Source of the DNA: Minisyncoccota bacterium
Lineage (GTDB): Bacteria > Patescibacteriota > Minisyncoccia > Phycocordibacterales > JABMNX01
DNA length: 64,000 nt
Direction: 5' to 3'
Assembly (NCBI GenBank): GCA_965222715.1
Contig: OZ244961.1
Coordinates: forward strand, 140,609-204,608
In this document: one piece after another, positions 8,241-59,966 of the stretch
How the letters are laid out: each line of letters opens with the position of its first letter
Numbering within the stretch: position 1 is the first letter of the stretch
Translations under genes and position numbers: made by a program
Notes under the pieces: generated by a model
What the model saw: only the letters and a program-made list of their open reading frames with translations
What the model was told of the DNA's origin: nothing
Database searches by the model: none

Positions 8241-8269
8241 GTATAGATTTTGGAGAGGTGGCAGAGTGG
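8241..8269 (+). repeat. direct repeat of the tRNA-Ser(GGA) 5' end plus 7 upstream bp (truncated tRNA 5' duplicate)
   Basis: GTATA.ATTTTGGAGAGGTGGCAGAGTGG recurs at 8359-8389; followed by a 13-bp perfect hairpin GAAGAAACACAAActgcTTTGTGTTTCTTC. Confidence 0.7.
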
Positions 8270-8367
8270 AAGAAACACAAACTGCTTTGTGTTTCTTCCG
8301 AAGCGTAGCGAAGGAGGACGACCCGAAGCCACCTCGTCCTGTAAGGCCAAAATACGAAGTATATTTT

Positions 8368-8455
<88 letters not shown>

Positions 8456-21282: not shown

Positions 21283-21421
21283 AGTGTTTTAATTTTGGTC
21301 TCAGGAATCGAAAGACGGAACGAGCGGTAGCGAGTGAGTCCGGGTAGGAGCCACTTCGTACTATTCCAGTATACTGGCATAGTACGTTAGTGAGCTGACA
21401 CCGATTCCTGGCGGGGGCACA
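21283..21421 (+). repeat. tRNA 3'-flank structured element, copy A (ends in 19-nt repeat of the tRNA-Arg 3' end)
   Basis: core TCGAAAGACGGAACGAGCGGTAGCGAGTGAGTCCGGGTAGGAGCCACTT-hairpin-TAGTGAGCTGACACCG then CGATTCCTGGCGGGGGCAC, identical to 21237-21255; homologous to copies at 48970-49098, 57131-57228 and 58836-58952. Confidence 0.7.
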
Positions 21422-21586
21422 AAACTGCAAGAAAACCATACTTACGTCTCATTTCTTGCGTTTTGTGAAGTGGGGCGATATCAAGTGAAACGAGACCATC
21501 AGCCAGTGTTGTACTCTCCATACTATGAATTACATTCCTTGTTTTATTTAGCACTTTAAAAATGTATATGGTTTAATTTATTTATC

Positions 21587-48759: not shown

Positions 48760-48832
48760 CCGCCTATAGCTCAGTTGGTAGAGCAACCGCCTCTTAAGCG
48801 GTGGGTCCTAGGTTCGAGTCCTAGTGGGCGGA
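48760..48832 (+). tRNA. tRNA-Lys (anticodon CTT)
   Basis: cloverleaf by eye with C1-G72; anticodon loop CTCTTAA. Confidence 0.75.
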
Positions 48833-48859
48833 CTGAGTAATCAATAAGAACATACACAA

Positions 48860-48941
48860 GCGCGGGTGGTGAAATTGGTAGACACGCTTGCCTTAGGAGC
48901 AAGTGCCTTCGGGCATGGAGGTTCGAGTCCTCTCCCGCGCA
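48860..48941 (+). tRNA. tRNA-Leu (anticodon TAG)
   Basis: cloverleaf by eye, long variable arm; anticodon loop CTTAGGA. Confidence 0.8.
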
Positions 48942-48969
48942 CAAAAAAGAATTTAAAACCAATTTGAAT

Positions 48970-49098
48970 TTTCGGTGCCCGGGACGGGAGTCGGTGTCAG
49001 CTCACTAAGCGTTATGCGCTAAGTGGCTCCTACCCGGACTCACTCGCTATCGCTCGTTCCGTCTTTCGACTCCCTTGAACCAAAATTAAAACACTGAC
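48970..49098 (-). repeat. tRNA 3'-flank structured element, copy B (24-nt repeat of the tRNA-Leu(TAA) 3' end)
   Basis: minus-strand reading: CAGTGTTTTAATTTTGGT-TCAAGGGAGTCGAAAGACGGAACGAGCGATAGCGAGTGAGTCCGGGTAGGAGCCACTT-hairpin-TAGTGAGCTGACACCGAC-GTCCCGGGCACCGAAA. Confidence 0.7.
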
Positions 49099-49121
49099 CC
49101 TCGCCAGTGTTTCAATTTCGG

Positions 49122-49202
49122 TGCCCGGGACGGGAGTCGAACCCGTATCCTAGAAGGACCCGATTTTAAGTCGAGCGCGTATACCAATTCCGCCACCCGG
49201 GC
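49122..49202 (-). tRNA. tRNA-Leu (anticodon TAA)
   Basis: cloverleaf by eye, long variable arm; anticodon loop CTTAAAA; followed by CCG. Confidence 0.8.
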
Positions 49203-49240
49203 AATAAGCAAAGCTCTCACGTATTGGAGAATTTTACTAG

Positions 49241-49312
49241 AGGCACGGGCGGGAATCGAACCCGCGCATCGCGGTTTTGCAGACCGCTGTGTTACCACTT
49301 CACCACCGTGCC
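49241..49312 (-). tRNA. tRNA-Cys (anticodon GCA)
   Basis: cloverleaf by eye, U73; anticodon loop CTGCAAA. Confidence 0.85.
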
Positions 49313-49454
49313 AAATTTTAATTAGTCTATCACGATTCCCGCCCGTCTCGGGCGGTCTCGATCCTTACAGGATCAGTACAGGTTGTCGATATTTTACTTC
49401 GTCCCTCATAAAATATCTGACAACCTTTTTCGACGCTACGCAATCTCGCGTCTC

Positions 49455-49508
49455 AACCCGCGCATCGCGGTTTTGCAGACCGCTGTGTTACCACTTCACC
49501 ACCGTGCC
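49455..49508 (-). pseudogene. truncated duplicate of tRNA-Cys (5' two-thirds only, no T-arm 3' strand or acceptor 3')
   Basis: 54 nt identical to 49259-49312, then diverges into long hairpins (49383-49425, GATCCTgtaAGGATC, CCGCCCGagaCGGGCGG). Confidence 0.7.
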
Positions 49509-54252: not shown

Positions 54253-56964
54253 ATGACACCATTTAATAATTTCACAACCAAAGCAAAAGAAGCAGTGCGT
54301 AAGGCGCACGAGCTTGCTATTGAACGTGGAGAGAATCATATTAATCCACTTCACTTACTTGCTGCACTTGTCCTTCAAGAGGAGAGCATGGTGCTTTCAA
54401 TTCTTGAGCGAATGGATATTGATACTATTTTATTTACTGACACGCTCCTTGAATCAATTGAAGGCGGTGAAAGTGGTGAGACCATTTCACCATCACACCA
54501 ACTCTATCTAACACCTGAACTTGCACAAGTACTTGAAGGTGCAACAAAGGTTGCTGAGAATTTCAATGATACTCGTGTCTCCACAGAACACCTTTTTATT
54601 TCAATTGTTGATACGCCTGGGCCGGCGGCGCAAGTACTTGCACAATTTCAAATCAATCGAAATGCAGTATTAAATGTATTTAATGAGCTCCGTGATAGCG
54701 ATGATCCCGATGTATTACAACCAAAACAAAATCGTGCTCTTGGTCGCTACACCAGAAGTCTCACAAAACTTGCAGCGGAAAATAAACTTGATCCTGTTAT
54801 TGGGCGCGATAGTGAGATCACTCGCGTGATTCAAATTCTTTCACGTCGTACAAAAAATAACCCAATTCTTATTGGTGAAGCGGGTGTAGGAAAAACTGCT
54901 ATTGCAGAAGGTCTTGCGGCGCGTATGGCAAGTGGTGATATTCCTGATTCTTTAAAAGATAAAGAATTGGTTACCCTTGATTTAGGAATGCTTATTGCAG
55001 GCACAAAGTATCGTGGAGAGTTTGAAGAGCGATTGAAGTCAATTATGAAAGAAGTAGAGCGAGCCGAAGGGAAAGTCATTCTTTTTATTGACGAATTACA
55101 TACGCTTGTAGGTGCTGGTGCGGCAGAAGGGGCAATGGATGCATCAAACATGTTAAAACCTGCCCTTGCGCGGGGTGAGTTGCGTGTGATTGGCGCAACC
55201 ACATTAAAAGAATATCAAAAATATATTGAGCGAGACGCCGCGCTCACTCGTCGGTTCCAACCAGTGCATGTATCTGAGCCATCCATTGAAGATGCTGTCG
55301 CTATTTTACGTGGTTTAAAGGAAAAGTATGAACTTTTTCATGGTGTGCGTATTACTGATGACGCCATTATTGCGGCAGTGACACTAAGCACACGATATAT
55401 TTCTGATCGTTTCTTACCAGATAAAGCGGTTGATCTTATTGATGAAGCAGCGTCTTCGCTCCGCATTTCACTTGAAAATAAACCGCCAGTCCTTGAAGAA
55501 ACACACCGAAAGGTGATGCGTCTTGAAATTGAAAAAGAGGCGCTTCGCAAGGAAGCTGAAGCGGGCGAGAAGAAAGCAAAAGATCGTATAAAGAAAATTG
55601 AAAAAGAGATATCTGATCTTAAAGAGAAGACTTCTGAGCTTGAATTAAAGTGGACAAATGAAAAAGAAGTACTTGGAGAAATTAAAGTACTCAAAAAGAG
55701 TTTAGAAGAGCTGCGCATTGAAGCAGAAGCAGCTGAAGCAACAGCTGATCTTTCTCGTGCTGCTGAGATTCGCTATGGGAAAATTCCTCAACAGGAGAAA
55801 GAGCTTGAATCAAAAATGAAGAAGCTGAAGAAGTTACAGAGCTCACGTCGAATTCTTAAAGAAGAGATTACTGAGAGTGATATTGCAGAAGTGGTCTCGC
55901 GTTGGACGAATATTCCTGTTGCACGAATGCTTGAGGAAGAAGCTGAGAAGTTGGCACGTATGGAAGAGGAACTCAAAGAGCGTATTGTTGGTCAAGATGA
56001 GGCGGTGAAGCTTATTTCTGACGCGGTGAAGCGCTCACGTGCTGGTATTTCTGACCCACATCGCCCAATTGGCTCATTTGTATTCCTTGGGCCAACAGGA
56101 GTTGGTAAGACAGAGTTAACCAAAGCTCTCACTGAGTTTCTCTTTGATGATGAATCAGCTCTCATTAGGGTTGATATGTCTGAGTATATGGAGAAGCACT
56201 CGGTATCTAAAATGATTGGCTCACCTCCAGGGTACGTTGGTCACGAAGAGGGTGGTGCACTCACTGAATTGGTTCGACACCGACCATACTCAGTACTCCT
56301 TTTTGATGAAATTGAAAAAGCACATCCTGAAGTCTTTAATATCTTACTTCAAGTGCTTGATAATGGTCACTTGACTGATGCAAAGGGACGAAAGGTAAAC
56401 TTTAAAAACACGGTGATTATCCTCACATCTAACATTGGCGCTGAGTACATTGACCGTATGACCAAGTTTGGTTTCTCAAACTCTGAAGATTCTGAGGCAA
56501 CACAGTACGAAGAGACAAAAGAGAAAGTACTTCGTGCTCTCCGAGATAACTTCCGACCAGAATTTATTAACCGACTTGATGAAATTGTTATCTTTGACAT
56601 TCTCTCGCCTGAAGCAATTAAAGATATTGTGGGTATTCAAATTGATATTGTGAAAGAGCGACTCTTGCGCAAGGAAATCAAGCTTACTGTATCAAGTGAT
56701 GTGCTCTCATACCTTGCTAAAGAAGGGTATAACCCACAATATGGTGCACGTCCACTGAAGCGGCTTATTCAGTCAAAAATTCTTACACCAATTGCCAATA
56801 TAATGGTCTCGCAAGGAATTATGGAGGGTGGTTCAGTCTCAGTTGATATAAAGAAAGGTGGGGAAGAAGGAGAATTTGATTTTACTGTCAAGAAAAAGCG
56901 AGCACGTACAACTCGGAAAGCGCAACCAACTAGAGTAAAAAGAAAAGCAGTTGCGTCTAAGTAA
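54253..56964 (+). CDS. clpB: ATP-dependent chaperone ClpB
   Basis: 903 aa, Clp-N, two AAA+ modules ([16 protein letters not shown]), long coiled-coil middle domain. Confidence 0.9.
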
Positions 56965-56992
56965 CTTTTAAGTAAGTAGAAGTCTCACAAAA

Positions 56993-57018
56993 AAACACCA
57001 AGAGTACTCTTGGTGTTT
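56993..57018 (+). terminator. conserved palindromic terminator repeat copy (AAACACCAAGAGTACTCTTGGTGTTT; compensatory G>A/C>T in arms)
   Basis: directly after clpB stop, followed by T-run. Confidence 0.6.
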
Positions 57019-57130
57019 TTTATAGCTTATTGGTGGGGGATTTGGCGCCAGTTCTAAACTCACTCTGTTCGTTAAGAACTCGCTGCCCCGTCGTTCAAAT
57101 CACTCTCGGTAGGAAATTTATGATTCCCTA

Positions 57131-57228
57131 GGCGTCAGCTCACTAACCTCAAAATAGTTTTGTTAACAAAACTATTTTGAGGAAGTGGCTCCTGCCCGAG
57201 CTCGCCGTCGTTCGTTCCTCACGACATG
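57131..57228 (-). repeat. tRNA 3'-flank structured element, copy D (degenerate, 3' of tRNA-Tyr)
   Basis: minus-strand GGAACGAACGACGGCGAGCTCGGGCAGGAGCCACTTCCTCAAAATAGTTTTGTTAACAAAACTATTTTGAGGTTAGTGAGCTGACGCC; nearly identical to copy C in the hairpin region. Confidence 0.6.
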
Positions 57229-57285
57229 GCTCCGCTTCACAAAACGCAGAAAACCAGACGCAGGTCTGGTTTTCTTGCAGTTTTG

Positions 57286-57369
57286 TGCGCCGGGAGGGAT
57301 TTGAACCCCCGTAGGACTAAGTCCGTCAGATTTACAGTCTGATGCAATTGACCACTCTGCCACCGACGC
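57286..57369 (-). tRNA. tRNA-Tyr (anticodon GTA)
   Basis: cloverleaf by eye, long variable arm, A73; anticodon loop CTGTAAA. Confidence 0.85.
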
Positions 57370-57394
57370 ATTTCACATTCCGTTATATATTTTA

Positions 57395-57467
57395 GGACGT
57401 TACGGACACGTCCGTCAGATTCTTAACATTATTGGTCTGAAGCAACTAACCACTCTGCCACCGACGC
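57395..57467 (-). pseudogene. decayed partial duplicate of tRNA-Tyr (acceptor 5', D-arm, anticodon arm with 15-nt loop, no T-arm)
   Basis: TGCGTCGGTGGCAGAGTGG identical to the tRNA-Tyr 5' end, then diverged TTCAGAC-15nt-TCTGACGGAC. Confidence 0.6.
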
Positions 57468-57577
57468 AATGTGGCCTATTTTAGCCTGTTTGTCCTGTTT
57501 TCTCAACCCTTCTGTAACAAGATTTATACAACTATACAACTTGTATCATTGTTTTCATCAAGCTACTATTAGGTGTA

Positions 57578-58411
57578 ATGAAATACGTACTTGCACTTGC
57601 TGTTCTATTTGTACTCATTGGGGGTACTTTTTTGCTATTGCCGGATGCGACTTTTGCACAATTCGATAACCCATCCCAAGGTACTGCAGTCCCTGGGGGC
57701 AATACTTCTTCTGGTTTAACGGAGAGAGTGGGGGGTGGAGGACTAGTGCCATGTGGAGGTCCAGGGCAAGACGCGTGTACCACATGTCACGCACTTCAAC
57801 TTGCACAAAATGTTGTTGAGTTCATTGTGCAAGTCTCATTTGTGATTGCTGCACTTCTGTTTGCCTACGCAGGCTTTCTCTTCTTTACTTCCTCTGCAGT
57901 TGACTCCATTTCAACAGCAAAAAATATTTTTACCAATACCGTTGTTGGTATCATCATCATTCTTACTGCTTGGCTCTTAGTAAATGTACTTCTTCATACA
58001 CTTACCGGTAAAGGAGTTAACCCTTTCACTGAATTGTTGTGTGACATAACTGAGCAACCCATACGAAACAATGCAACGAACAATTCAATAAACACTACCG
58101 GGGGCACAGCTAGTGGTGTGAGTACGGAAGGTGTTTCAGAAAATGATTCAGAGATAGATCCACTTCAAGATGCGCGAGATCGTGCAGCAGAAATACAGGC
58201 TGAACGTGATCGACAACTAGAAGAAGAGCGTCAGGCAGCAGTTGAAGCGGGGGGAGACCCTGACGAAGTGCCGTTGGTCAATAAATGGTTTTTTAGAACA
58301 CAGACAGGTCCACAAGGAGAAGAGGTGGGGCCTTTTGATTCGCAACCAGAATGTGTAAGTCGTGCAATTGCTTCAGGGGTAAATCCATTTTGTTACGCAA
58401 AATCAATCTAG
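57578..58411 (+). CDS. TrbC/VirB2-like pilin-type membrane protein (paralog 5) with 130-aa C-terminal Asn/Thr- and acidic-rich extension
   Basis: 277 aa: signal peptide, Cys-rich segment (CGGPGQDACTTCH), two-helix core collinear with 47226-47597. Confidence 0.45.
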   Translation: MKYVLALAVLFVLIGGTFLLLPDATFAQFDNPSQGTAVPGGNTSSGLTERVGGGGLVPCGGPGQDACTTCHALQLAQNVVEFIVQVSFVIAALLFAYAGFLFFTSSAVDSISTAKNIFTNTVVGIIIILTAWLLVNVLLHTLTGKGVNPFTELLCDITEQPIRNNATNNSINTTGGTASGVSTEGVSENDSEIDPLQDARDRAAEIQAERDRQLEEERQAAVEAGGDPDEVPLVNKWFFRTQTGPQGEEVGPFDSQPECVSRAIASGVNPFCYAKSI

Positions 58412-58461
58412 TTTGACTCGGTAGTACCTATCATGTATAGTGGTCAAGCAATTTTCTATAT

Positions 58462-58620
58462 ATGTCACAAGATAGATTAATAAAACTCGCGTGCCAGGAA
58501 TGTAAGCGTATTAACTACTGGTCAAGCAAAAATAAGAAGCTTGTTGAGCGAAAGATTGAGCTCAAGAAGTACTGTAAATGGTGCAAGAAGCAGACAGCAC
58601 ATAAGGAGATGAAGAAATAA
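58462..58620 (+). CDS. rpmG: 50S ribosomal protein L33
   Basis: 52 aa, CxxC...CxxC zinc ribbon (CQECKRINYW...YCKWCKK); classic rpmG-tRNA-Trp linkage. Confidence 0.8.
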   Translation: MSQDRLIKLACQECKRINYWSSKNKKLVERKIELKKYCKWCKKQTAHKEMKK

Positions 58621-58701
58621 GATACTCCTACCAAACCTGTAAAAACTGCGTAGCACCTACGCAGTTTTTACGTTATAGTGTTGGGACTTCTATAGAGTAT
58701 T

Positions 58702-58772
58702 GGGCCTATAGTTCAGTGGTAGAATAACGGTCTCCAAAACCGTCGACCGAGGTTCGAGTCCTCGTGGGCCCG
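58702..58772 (+). tRNA. tRNA-Trp (anticodon CCA)
   Basis: cloverleaf by eye, G73; anticodon loop CTCCAAA. Confidence 0.85.
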
Positions 58773-58835
58773 CAATGATACAAAACAATAGCGTTTAGCT
58801 ATTATGTTGTAACTATCATTTCGAGGATTCAAGTG

Positions 58836-58952
58836 GACTCGAAAGACGGAGCCGAAGGCGAGTCCGGGCAGGAGCCACTTCCTCAAAATATTTTATGTTA
58901 ACAAAAGTATTTTGAGGTTAGTGAGCTGACGCCGAGTCCTCGTGGGCCCGCA
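58836..58952 (+). repeat. tRNA 3'-flank structured element, copy C (21-nt repeat of the tRNA-Trp 3' end)
   Basis: GGACTCGAAAGACGGAGCCGAAGGCGAGTCCGGGCAGGAGCCACTT-hairpin(CCTCAAAATA...TATTTTGAGG)-TTAGTGAGCTGACGCCGAGTCCTCGTGGGCCCGCAA. Confidence 0.7.
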
Positions 58953-59039
58953 AAACATTTTTCATACACCTTAGAATCCACCCCTCTTACTATTTCGTCA
59001 TATGAAGAAATAGTAAGATAGTGTGTTACGTAGAATCTG

Positions 59040-59966
59040 TTAATGGTTCTTTAGAAATTTTGACACAAAGCTCTCCATTTTTTTTATTTCACTTGGGTGT
59101 AACCACTGGATATCACCATCTCGCTTGAACCACGTTCGCTGTCGTTTAGCATACTGCCATATCTTATTTCGCAACTCCTTAATCATATCTTCTTTGGACA
59201 TTTCTCCAGTAAGGTGTCGCGCCATATAACGATACTCAAGTCCAAGAGACTCCATTCGCTCCAACGATACTCCTTCTTGATTGAGTCGTTTTGCTTCATT
59301 AAGCATTCCTTCTTCAAGCCGTGCGGTAAGGCGGTTGTATATTTTTTCTTTTAATACTTCATCAGGCAGATCTAAACCAATTTTACATGCGAAGTAAGGG
59401 GTTTTGTGTACTTCTTGCGGGACACTACCGAGCGTCTCAGCTATTTCAATTGCGCGAATGATGCGCGGTCGATTGTGTATGTCTATAGTTTTTCTTCGTT
59501 CAGGGTCAAGTGCTTCAAGTCTCTCAAGTAATACATCTGTTTTTTGTGAATCAAGTACTTCTCGCAATTCTTTGTTTGGTGGTACTTCAGGAAAAGAGAC
59601 CTCTCCAAGAAGTGCCGAGAGATAAAACCCAGTGCCACCAGCAAGTATAGGGAGTTTTCCTCTCAAATCTATATCTTTGATTGCCTCATCTGCATCTTTT
59701 TTAAATTGAGAAGCAGTATAGGTTTCTGTTGGGTCAGCAACATTAAGAAGGTGGTGTGGTACTCGTTGCATCTCTTCCTGGGTAATTTTACCTGAGCCAA
59801 TGTCTAATCCACGGTATACCTGCCGAGAGTCCACTGAAATTACCTCACCATTAAATTTCTTAGCAAGAATTACAGCCACATCGCTCTTACCTGTCGCTGT
59901 TGGACCAACAACTATAAGCACCTTAAGAGGCTTTTGAGGTATATTTTCAGCCATATTTTTTGACAT
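59040..59966 (-). CDS. miaA: tRNA dimethylallyltransferase
   Basis: 308 aa, P-loop GPTATGKS, conserved DSRQVYRGLDIGSGK. Confidence 0.85.
   Translation of the reverse strand: MSKNMAENIPQKPLKVLIVVGPTATGKSDVAVILAKKFNGEVISVDSRQVYRGLDIGSGKITQEEMQRVPHHLLNVADPTETYTASQFKKDADEAIKDIDLRGKLPILAGGTGFYLSALLGEVSFPEVPPNKELREVLDSQKTDVLLERLEALDPERRKTIDIHNRPRIIRAIEIAETLGSVPQEVHKTPYFACKIGLDLPDEVLKEKIYNRLTARLEEGMLNEAKRLNQEGVSLERMESLGLEYRYMARHLTGEMSKEDMIKELRNKIWQYAKRQRTWFKRDGDIQWLHPSEIKKMESFVSKFLKNH

Follow-up and report, generated by a model that had tools for sequence, protein, structure and literature searches.

Among the closest described systems are the integrative elements of tRNA and tmRNA genes, for which a classification made by Williams in 2002 is said to recognize an attachment (att) sublocation at the T loop, and that classification is the basis of our comparison. 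Patescibacteria have very small genomes and few classical mobile elements. Here we analyse a 64,000-nucleotide Patescibacteria (Candidate Phyla Radiation, CPR) chromosome segment, contig OZ244961.1 of assembly GCA_965222715.1, which as a whole is called the window, and within it a small structured element, copy D, that follows the tRNA-Tyr gene on the minus strand. An earlier reading of this DNA, referred to below as the original prediction, had described D as a copy of a tRNA 3'-flank element related to copy C, which follows tRNA-Trp. Genome stretches compared with the window carry L-numbers (L007, L046, L102 and so on).

Like the integrative elements of tRNA and tmRNA genes, the family to which D belongs duplicates the 3' part of the tRNA from the T loop onwards, leaves the tRNA intact, accretes in tandem and occasionally brings cargo. 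It differs from them in being only about 100-150 nt long, in having no integrase, in placing one core behind 19 tRNA isotypes, and in combining a covarying RNA structure with an internal antisense copy of its target. We read 57025-57284 of the minus strand as the 3' trailer of tRNA-Tyr holding two tandem members of this family, and the family itself as a non-autonomous cassette spreading from one tRNA 3' end to others; we put the probability of this reading at roughly 0.6.

Results

A covarying RNA fold behind tRNA genes

Copies A, B and C of the window follow a common plan: a tRNA gene, an upstream hairpin (P0, which in the family at large is optional and has a CUGC loop), an antisense segment (AS) complementary to the T loop and the 3' strand of the T stem, (U)CGAAAG-N-CGGAG, the P3 hairpin, CGAG-N'-CCGGG-Y-A-GGAGCCACUU, a variable P4 hairpin, UUAGUGAGCUGAC-R-CC, and a direct repeat of the tRNA 3' end (S), which in these copies runs from about C56 of the tRNA to the discriminator (19-24 nt). 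AS and S pair to form the closing stem, P1. Copies A and B have P0 and core in common, AS and S not. A species-representative genome collection was scanned for the exact pattern GGAGCCACTT-N(8-38)-TTAGTGAGCTGAC, which was present in 101 genome stretches, often with several copies per genome. Nearly all titled records were Patescibacteria, including Paceibacteria, Kaiserbacteria, Spechtbacterales, Saccharibacteria and Vogelbacteria, and there was no match to the exact core pattern in the IMG/VR viral contigs.

RNAalifold analysis of 37 clean aligned copies (alignment A1) gave a three-way junction composed of P1, a P2/P3 arm and a P5/P6/P4 arm, with compensatory changes in 14 of 26 pairs. A covariance model, R1, was built from the same copies and matched 148 sites at E <= 0.01 over the first 100 loci, and 126 sites at E <= 1e-8 over a set of 96 sources that included the window. 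Among the 126 hits double changes were seen in 24 of the 26 pairs, and paired cells amounted to 94.0%, compared with 75.1% in column shuffles, percentages that are inflated because this alignment was fitted to R1. The covariation score was 0.479 against 0.141 for shuffled alignments, a value that none of 500 shuffles reached, and it fell to 0.02-0.06 when partners were slid by 1-3 columns. G·U combinations outnumbered A·C combinations in the core helices by 46 to 13, and the folding strand is therefore the tRNA-sense strand, as expected of an RNA. Helix P6 also covaries in variant subfamilies (GCGAGCACUU..UUAGUGACUCGUGAC and AGUUCUUA..UUAGAAC), while CGGAG, GAG-N-CCGGG-Y-A-GGAGCCACUU and UUAGUGAGCUGAC-R-CC are the conserved motifs of the core, which spans about 100 nt. 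The family is a conserved RNA fold supported by covariation and spread across Patescibacteria, which the original prediction could not have seen.

This tRNA-trailer three-way-junction family is apparently undescribed so far. A cmscan of the whole window against Rfam 15 at gathering thresholds returned tRNAs and RNase P only, and relaxing the threshold up to E=10 over 56950-59050 yielded only noise (miRNA-type matches on the palindrome of D). A full-text literature search found no description of this element.

A second core, E2, is unrelated to the R1 family (..GAAC..GGGGUCGGG..CCCGUGG-GGAA..AAACCG-GGG..) and is missed by R1. It has the same layout of AS, core and S, and was found behind tRNA-Tyr (L102, 6020-6190) and tRNA-Asp (L089, 3420-3575).

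The tips of P3 and P4 in many copies of the R1 family (for example 21322-21336 in the window, and copies in L007 and L054) carry a recurrent GAG-[C-GNA-G]-CGA(A), which looks like tandem sheared G·A pairs around a small loop and recalls a K-loop or protein-binding motif. The same tip is present in two modules 5' of tRNA genes of the window, described below.

Duplication of the tRNA 3' end and exchange of the core

A tRNA gene lay on the same strand no more than 400 nt upstream of 77 of 111 cores, with 19 isotypes represented. S was mostly an exact repeat of 15-27 nt and almost always started 2 nt past GCTGAC. The median match of AS was 9 nt to its own tRNA, compared with 5 nt for AS of other isotypes; matches of at least 12 nt were found for 9 of 63 own tRNAs and for none of 63 controls, and the longest complementarity, 17 nt, occurred in the tRNA-His copy of L021. 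Measured from the T loop, the duplicated repeat was 10-116 nt long and often took in the trailer and the terminator of the tRNA. CCA followed the repeat in 9 of 56 cases and the tRNA gene in 28 of 214, which is no enrichment. An origin of S as a reverse-transcribed copy of the mature tRNA was rejected, since CCA is not enriched and the repeats run into the genomic trailer; the duplication is at the DNA level. Over all loci CCA is thus rarely encoded, the discriminator being followed by CA in 136 and by CAA in 88 of the 214 tRNA genes.

An empty and a filled version of one site were found at tRNA-Pro(TGG), which carries an element in L100 and none in L046, with flanks 87% identical. In the filled allele 49 nt of native sequence, from the 3' strand of the T stem to 34 nt past the tRNA, are duplicated. 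The orthologous tRNA-Gly(GCC) genes of the same two genomes have P0, AS and S in common and differ in core subtype, and the tRNA-Gly core of L046 carries the P4 of the tRNA-Pro core of L100. In the complete genome OZ253947 the copies behind tRNA-Asp and tRNA-Thr are about 97% identical from GAAAG to GCC and differ in AS and S. Among 23 informative cases the nearest neighbour of a core was found in the same genome in 12, and behind the same tRNA in another genome in two. A four-tRNA cluster of the window (48760-49312; Lys(CTT), Leu(TAG), Leu(TAA) and Cys) is syntenic with L068 1403-3139 and L091 5095-7137, and across the three genomes element occupancy varies at every tRNA but Leu(TAA).

One insertion is not at a tRNA: in L087 (402-776) an element lies behind the 3' end of a protein gene with a 116-nt duplication on both sides, and its AS (UGGUUUUUG) matches the duplicated block over its first 9 nt. 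Cargo was present in three stretches. In L078, tRNA-Asp is followed by an E-S unit (family core E with its S), 1.86 kb and a second E-S unit; in L061 and L089, 3.2 kb (including an HNH protein) and 1.3 kb, respectively, separate the tRNA from the E-S unit. No recombinase was recognized by eye among the cargo open reading frames (ORFs) of L061 and L078, which were not put through a Pfam scan. Elsewhere a single tRNA is commonly followed by two to five copies in tandem (L068, L091, L064 and L028), and several fragments keep the 3' arm only (model positions 56-105).

Taken together, these comparisons show that insertion sets the 3' end of the core precisely at T-loop position ~56, duplicating 10-116 nt of native target and leaving the other junction variable. 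They further show that cores are later exchanged or homogenized between copies within one genome.

Copy D and its tandem partner D2

Copy D was recognized by R1 with 55.4 bits (E=2e-15, cmsearch; E=6e-12, nhmmer), which confirms that it belongs to the family of tRNA 3'-flank elements. In the cmsearch alignment helices P2 (AGC/GCU), P3 (AUGUCGU..ACGAC), P5 (GGGC/GCC), P6 (AGCCACU/AGUG-A-GCU) and P4 are all canonical, while P1 is non-canonical on both strands. The P2 of D is a covarying variant also found in L007 and L097, and P4 is a perfect 36-nt palindrome, CCTCAAAATAGTTTTGTTAACAAAACTATTTTGAGG, at 57147-57182. The core motif GGAGCCACUU starts 93 nt past the 3' end of tRNA-Tyr. Within D the 24-nt core motif GGCGAGCTCGGGCAGGAGCCACTT (57183-57206, minus strand), for which the expected number of chance matches is 0, has a twin with two mismatches at 58857-58880 on the plus strand, in copy C. 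A BLAST search within the window aligned D and C over 69 nt at 95.7% identity (E=2e-25). The homology with C and the common core had thus been correctly seen, and D is not random AT-rich spacer.

Other parts of the original prediction for D need adjustment. The hairpin said to be the same in D and C is indeed there, but the two versions are about 92% identical with one indel, that of D being perfect and that of C imperfect. Similarly, the left motif that D was said to lack, TCGAAAGACGGA, is found in its exact form only in copies A, B and C of the window, but D keeps a remainder, ..AAGCGGAGCC.., and an intact P2/P3 arm; only the GAAAG junction and AS are gone. The closest relative of the 3' arm of D is copy C. 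Because the 3' arms are 96% identical while the P2/P3 arms are unlike, the arm of D was recently copied, converted or homogenized between the D and C loci. A perfect P4 in D facing an imperfect one in C, with all core helices retained and nothing lost except AS and S, also means that D is not simply an older, decaying copy, as had been proposed.

The 10-nt slot usually taken by AS holds GCGUUUUGUG in D, which in the minimum free energy (MFE) fold is paired to the trailer of tRNA-Tyr, making the upstream hairpin longer. At the other end, the longest string common to the 3' flank of D and the 3' end of tRNA-Tyr is 4 nt, in agreement with the earlier view that D has no clean repeat of the tRNA; a short hairpin stands in the place of S (Table 1). 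P1 is absent in about 14% of family members, and clamp-less copies that, like D, sit directly behind a U-rich hairpin tail were seen in L010, L040, L064 and L083. As a whole the 266 nt from 57025 to 57290 of the minus strand fold far more stably than shuffled sequences (z = -8.5). On this evidence we take D to be a member of the tRNA-trailer family with an intact core, in which the tRNA-specific clamp (AS plus S) is missing.

The inverted T-loop-like GATTTGAACGACGGGG, which had been regarded as the right end of D, belongs to the AS and left motif of a second element, D2. D2 is read in the order GAUUUG (AS), AACGACGG (left motif), GGGCAGCGAGUUCUUA..UUAGAACUGGCGCC (3' arm) and CAAAUCCCCCACCA (tail); its 3' arm is intact, its P2/P3 arm is deleted, and its P1 consists of the 6 bp GAUUUG/CAAAUC. 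The tail matches the 3' strand of the tRNA-Tyr T loop and T stem in its first 8 nt only (CAAATCCC). D2 is a truncated tandem member of the sister subfamily AGUUCUUA..UUAGAAC that still has a short AS/S pair. With D2 included, the element region reaches down to about 57025, below the start at 57040 given earlier.

The P0 hairpin and a possible transcription unit

A long hairpin of 22 pairs separates tRNA-Tyr from D, as the original prediction had noted. Its inner stem (57248-57275) closes a CUGC loop, and in its outer stem the tRNA-Tyr trailer CACAAAAC pairs with GUUUUGUG. BLAST aligned it at 86% identity with 21421-21470, a segment downstream of copy A. In the 97 family cores with enough upstream sequence, a CUGC-loop hairpin of at least 5 bp was found about 10 nt before the core in 28 cases, compared with 58 of 20000 random windows, a roughly 100-fold enrichment at a fixed distance from the core. 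The P0 stems also covary (GCAAA/UUUGC, GCACAUUGC and GUGCGCAC). Because CUGC-loop hairpins recur at that place in 28 of 97 cores, the long hairpin behind tRNA-Tyr is not an unrelated feature but the family's own P0 module. Its designation as bidirectional found no support: a simple terminator scan called it on the minus strand only (12 pairs, five of them G-C, tail GCGUUUUGUG), and its U-run is only 4 nt long and is paired with the tRNA trailer in the MFE fold.

A second hairpin, with a GC stem flanked by an A-run and a T-run, lies between the clpB stop codon and D2. It was not called by the simple terminator scan and is probably a bidirectional terminator, serving clpB on the plus strand and the tRNA-Tyr/D/D2 transcript on the minus strand. 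Promoter-like sites on the minus strand at 57506-57478, just upstream of a pseudo-tRNA-Tyr, and at 57418-57389 would fit a single transcription unit composed of pseudo-tRNA, tRNA-Tyr, P0, D, D2 and terminator. The pseudo-tRNA is a diverged copy of tRNA-Tyr from nt 1 to about 48, with the first 19 nt exact; the 5' strand of the acceptor, the D arm, the variable arm and an enlarged anticodon loop are retained, and the T arm is missing.

The tRNA-Tyr locus in relatives

The synteny comparison of tRNA-Tyr loci that had been suggested was carried out with the three closest relatives found, L102, L103 and L135 (ClpB 60-70% identical). In all of them tRNA-Tyr is on the clpB strand, directly downstream of clpB in L102 and L135 and about 1.9 kb downstream in L103. 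Compared with these relatives, the window has the tRNA-Tyr unit (56964-57578) inverted with respect to clpB and tRNA-Trp. Behind the tRNA-Tyr of L102 come a long hairpin resembling P0, an AS (AGGAUUCGAA), the E2 core and, repeated over 15 nt, the 3' end of the tRNA. The inversion and the decayed tRNA-Tyr fragment upstream together mean that the locus has been rearranged, and such a history fits D as a recombination product that lost its clamp. Without AS and S, D is in all likelihood immobile and derived from recombination between copies, not from a fresh insertion. Copies C and D now form 69-nt inverted repeats 1.7 kb apart, which could promote further inversions.

Other features of the window

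Coordinates are collected in Table 1. The RNA genes of the window are RNase P RNA and 13 tRNAs, of which about one-third (4-5) carry elements. According to a Pfam scan of 53 ORFs its protein genes are housekeeping only, among them ClpB, MiaA, GroEL, GyrA, FtsZ and IF-2, together with two aminoacyl-tRNA synthetase genes (one class I and one HisRS-like). Two genes with a type IV secretion system (T4SS) pilin domain (PF18895; 57578-58411 and 48021-48371) each adjoin an element-bearing tRNA cluster. An exact-protein look-up of the neighbouring 277-aa gene, made for a strain-level comparison, matched no record.

Table 1. Features of the tRNA-Tyr locus and related features elsewhere in the window.
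Feature	Coordinates	Strand	Basis and remarks
ClpB ORF	54253-56964	+	Ends before the GC-stem hairpin
GC-stem hairpin with A-run and T-run flanks	56988-57023		Read from sequence; between clpB stop codon and D2
Copy D2, tandem truncated element	57025-57107	-	cmsearch 19.2 bits, E=5e-4; aligned with L028 1484-1610 and L095 4755-4869
7-bp hairpin UAGGGAAUCAUAAAUUUCCUA	57110-57130	-	MFE fold; occupies the usual place of S behind D
Copy D core, three-way junction	57131-57237	-	cmsearch hit spans 57112-57248
P0 module, long hairpin	57235-57284	-	MFE fold, 22 pairs; between tRNA-Tyr and D
tRNA-Tyr (GTA)	57285-57369	-	ARAGORN; Rfam tRNA model 60.1 bits; host tRNA of D and D2
Pseudo-tRNA-Tyr	57395-57468	-	Sequence comparison; directly upstream of real tRNA-Tyr
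Copy C, after tRNA-Trp (58702-58773)	58830-58952	+	cmsearch 90.8 bits; canonical AS and core; 21-nt repeat of tRNA-Trp 3' end
Copy A, after tRNA-Arg(CCT)	21299-21421	+	cmsearch 96.9 bits; canonical; 19-nt repeat
D-type remnant behind the repeat of copy A	21421-21500	+	Degenerate P0 (86% identical to that of D) and GUGAAGUGGGGCGAU..; no 3' arm
Copy B, after tRNA-Leu(TAA)	48974-49078	-	cmsearch 97.5 bits; canonical; 24-nt direct repeat
tRNA-Cys 5' module	49313-49508	-	Upstream of complete tRNA-Cys (49240-49312)
tRNA-Ser(GGA) 5' module	8252-8367	+	Upstream of tRNA-Ser(GGA) (8368-8455)

Remnants like the one behind copy A, in which P0 is joined by the beginning of P2/P3, also stand behind the repeat in L081, L100, L034 and L095. 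Modules of a related kind precede two tRNA genes of the window. In the tRNA-Cys module nt 1-54 of tRNA-Cys are repeated exactly, the copy breaking off at T55 of the T loop, and a 142-nt structured insert (z = -5.8) comes next. This insert contains an TCGAAAAAGG motif, a hairpin with a GAG..CGAA tip, and nt 56-69 of tRNA-Cys in antisense orientation. The module is a mirror-image case, with the same 55|56 insertion point but the 5' part of the tRNA duplicated. The tRNA-Ser module repeats tRNA-Ser nt 1-18 and contains a hairpin with a CUGC loop (8270-8297), CCGAAGCGUAGCGAAGG, and CCACCUC, which is antisense to nt 3-9 of the tRNA. Upstream of tRNAs in L061, L068, L075, L078, L092 and L095 similar duplications were seen, which cover tRNA nt 1-15 to 1-25 and break off in the D loop.

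Discussion

A proposed cassette spreading among tRNA 3' ends

We infer that the elements are non-autonomous mobile or recombining cassettes. Each would be transcribed as part of the tRNA trailer, and P1 would hold AS, keeping it from invading the tRNA and disturbing its folding. The enzyme that moves the element would be encoded elsewhere in the genome. We favour a scheme in which the T loop is nicked, the element is copied, and a second nick falls at a variable distance. Both the pattern of junctions and the existence of fragments reduced to the 3' arm would be explained by a target-primed copy-in mechanism, but a local search revealed no reverse transcriptase. Re-specification of AS could come about by point changes under selection for P1, by template switching across the AS/S quasi-palindrome, or by a templated step during insertion, all of which would fit the data.

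Several observations weigh against a spreading cassette. Only one clean pair of empty and filled sites was found. The Pfam scan of the 53 window ORFs returned no integrase, transposase or reverse transcriptase, and clustering of ORFs (<=2.5 kb) from 107 elements gave no recurrent linked protein, the best family reaching 10 of 101 loci and being a housekeeping one. The same host tRNAs are occupied in distant relatives, namely tRNA-Trp, which carries an element both in the window and in L102, and tRNA-Leu(TAA), which does so in L068 and L091 as well as in the window, and positions of this kind also fit a host function kept by selection. The fit of AS to each new tRNA is left unexplained by a spreading cassette. 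P0 hairpins with U-tracts could end tRNA transcripts ahead of the element, and part of the pairing statistics is inflated, as noted above.

Alternative explanations

The main rival is a host-beneficial tRNA-maturation switch. The element would then not be selfish but would act in cis as an RNA module within tRNA precursors, with a core that binds a protein or ligand. AS would pair either with S as a decoy, allowing the tRNA to fold, or with the 3' half of the tRNA, blocking it, and would so tune maturation or decay; D would be a variant without the switch. The occupation of tRNA-Trp and tRNA-Leu(TAA) in distant relatives and the lack of a linked mobility gene, just mentioned, count in its favour, and so do the strong conservation of core sequence and structure across Patescibacteria classes and the analogous sense/antisense modules 5' of tRNA-Ser and tRNA-Cys. 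In addition, S stays identical to the tRNA while AS tracks differences between tRNAs: tRNA-Trp reads CGAGT in the window and CGAAT in L102, each with matching AS and S. A host module is harder to reconcile, however, with repeats of 10 to 116 nt that take in non-functional trailer and terminator sequence, with the existence of an empty and a filled orthologous site, and with an insertion away from tRNAs, within the 3' end of a gene. Tandem arrays and truncated fragments, the clustering of cores by genome, the presence of elements on only about one-third of the tRNAs of the window, and the intact cores of clamp-less copies such as D likewise speak against it, and we consider it unlikely.

A more far-reaching version of the cassette proposal seems to us quite unlikely. 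The core would be the RNA part, either a small ribozyme or a guide/scaffold RNA, of a programmable mobile system homing to the tRNA T loop. AS would pick the insertion point by pairing, and the target duplication would let the tRNA gene survive. At least two unrelated cores (E and E2) and the mirror-image 5' modules would then be using the same sense/antisense logic.

It is also conceivable, though very unlikely, that the core is the guide-RNA scaffold of a nuclease, recombinase or reverse transcriptase encoded elsewhere, with AS and/or S as the guide to the T loop, in the manner of an omega-RNA, a bridge RNA or the SINE-like partner of a reverse transcriptase (SINE, short interspersed nuclear element). 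Without exception, and also where L087 carries its non-tRNA insertion, AS is complementary to the sequence just 3' of the core, one junction (3') is precise while the other (5') and the length of the duplication vary, several fragments hold the 3' arm (model positions 56-105) alone, and the cassette can be re-addressed to many tRNAs, all of which a guide RNA would accommodate. Such a guide would, on the other hand, be masked by AS-S pairing and would also target the intact neighbouring tRNA gene. No partner protein family recurs near the elements in the 101 loci, and Rfam shows no similarity to known guide scaffolds. For an omega-RNA of an IS200/IS605 element, or a palindrome-associated transposable element (PATE), in particular, no TnpB-like ORF is present in the window or recurrent in the loci, and the target duplication argues against it.

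Leftovers of integrase-mediated islands or prophages in the segment from the T loop to the tRNA 3' end, with the repeat as attL/attR and the core as an att-proximal end, are highly improbable. In the family, although not in copy D, the repeat runs from the T loop to and past the tRNA 3' end as in known att sites; versions with cargo exist in L078 (1.86 kb), L061 (3.2 kb) and L089 (1.3 kb), and att sites typically show tandem accretion at one tRNA. Against this, no integrase was recognized in the L061 and L078 cargo (by eye), near elements or in the 64-kb window, and viral contigs gave no match. One near-identical core serves many tRNAs per genome, whereas integrases are each specific for one tRNA, and random remnants would show neither covarying helices nor an AS matched to the tRNA. 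Chance similarity, or ordinary AT-rich spacer with terminator hairpins, has practically no probability: the long hairpin does fit a simple terminator pattern and the P4 palindrome is AT-rich, but neither accounts for a 24-nt motif with no expected match, the cmsearch score of D (E=2e-15) or covariation over 126 homologues.

Significance

Taken alone, copy D is a modest result, a clamp-less member of the family beside a truncated one; the family is the interesting object. If the cassette proposal is true, an RNA cassette of about 100 nt has colonized the tRNA 3' ends of nearly all isotypes throughout the lineage without breaking the genes, and has been re-addressed from tRNA to tRNA without a linked enzyme, which raises the question of how so small an RNA-structured element is targeted and copied. 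The answer could be a new RNA-based targeting principle or a layer of tRNA-precursor control so far unseen in organisms that are hard to culture. For annotators, R1 and the rule of AS, core and S would account for many 'partial tRNA duplications' in Patescibacteria assemblies. The repeats would also mark recombination hotspots, an example being the tRNA-Tyr unit of the window, inverted relative to its relatives.

Comparison with known systems

A search with cmscan gave no match to known Rfam families (hammerhead, twister, hepatitis delta virus (HDV)-like, hatchet and pistol ribozymes, tmRNA, signal recognition particle (SRP) RNA, Y RNA and others). Some resemblances were considered by eye and dropped. 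The topology fits a type II hammerhead, but the junction has GAAA and CUGAC, and the CUGANGA invariants are absent and vary in subfamilies. The AGC triad of group II intron domain V is present, but the position of the bulge and the variable P4 do not fit. CUGA is present as in a kink-turn or box C/D motif, but the pairing does not fit. SRP RNA domain IV was also dropped, as was an analogy between AS and a retroviral primer-binding site (PBS), since AS usually stops at the T stem, short of the tRNA 3' terminus.

Mimics of tRNA and of its minihelix (the tRNA-like domain of tmRNA, YrlA, viral tRNA-like structures (TLS) and mascRNA) resemble the family in that the 3' strand of P1 and the tail equal the 3' strand of T stem and acceptor; in some copies, among them the tRNA-His copy of L021 with 17 bp, P1 reproduces the whole acceptor/T minihelix. 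Unlike them, the family copies the neighbouring tRNA exactly, mostly with a P1 of T loop and T stem only (~9 bp), and it has no analogue of the T loop or D arm and no Rfam match.

The target-primed retroposons (SINEs and long interspersed nuclear elements, LINEs) and the pairing of exon- and intron-binding sites (EBS/IBS) in group II introns are similar in a precise 3' and variable 5' junction, in variable duplications, in truncated copies, and in an element that base-pairs with the flanking target. With no reverse transcriptase identified, no poly-A and no intron domain, the resemblance is one of pattern only.

Finally, miniature inverted-repeat transposable elements (MITEs), repetitive extragenic palindromes and bacterial interspersed mosaic elements (REP/BIME), and the PATEs derived from IS200/IS605 are, like the family described here, small, multi-copy, intergenic, structured, non-coding and homogenized within a genome. 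The family differs from them in that fixed terminal inverted repeats are absent, the 'inverted repeat' formed by AS and S changing with the target, in that its duplication is long and variable (10-116 nt) where theirs is short and fixed, and in its strong specificity for the tRNA T loop.

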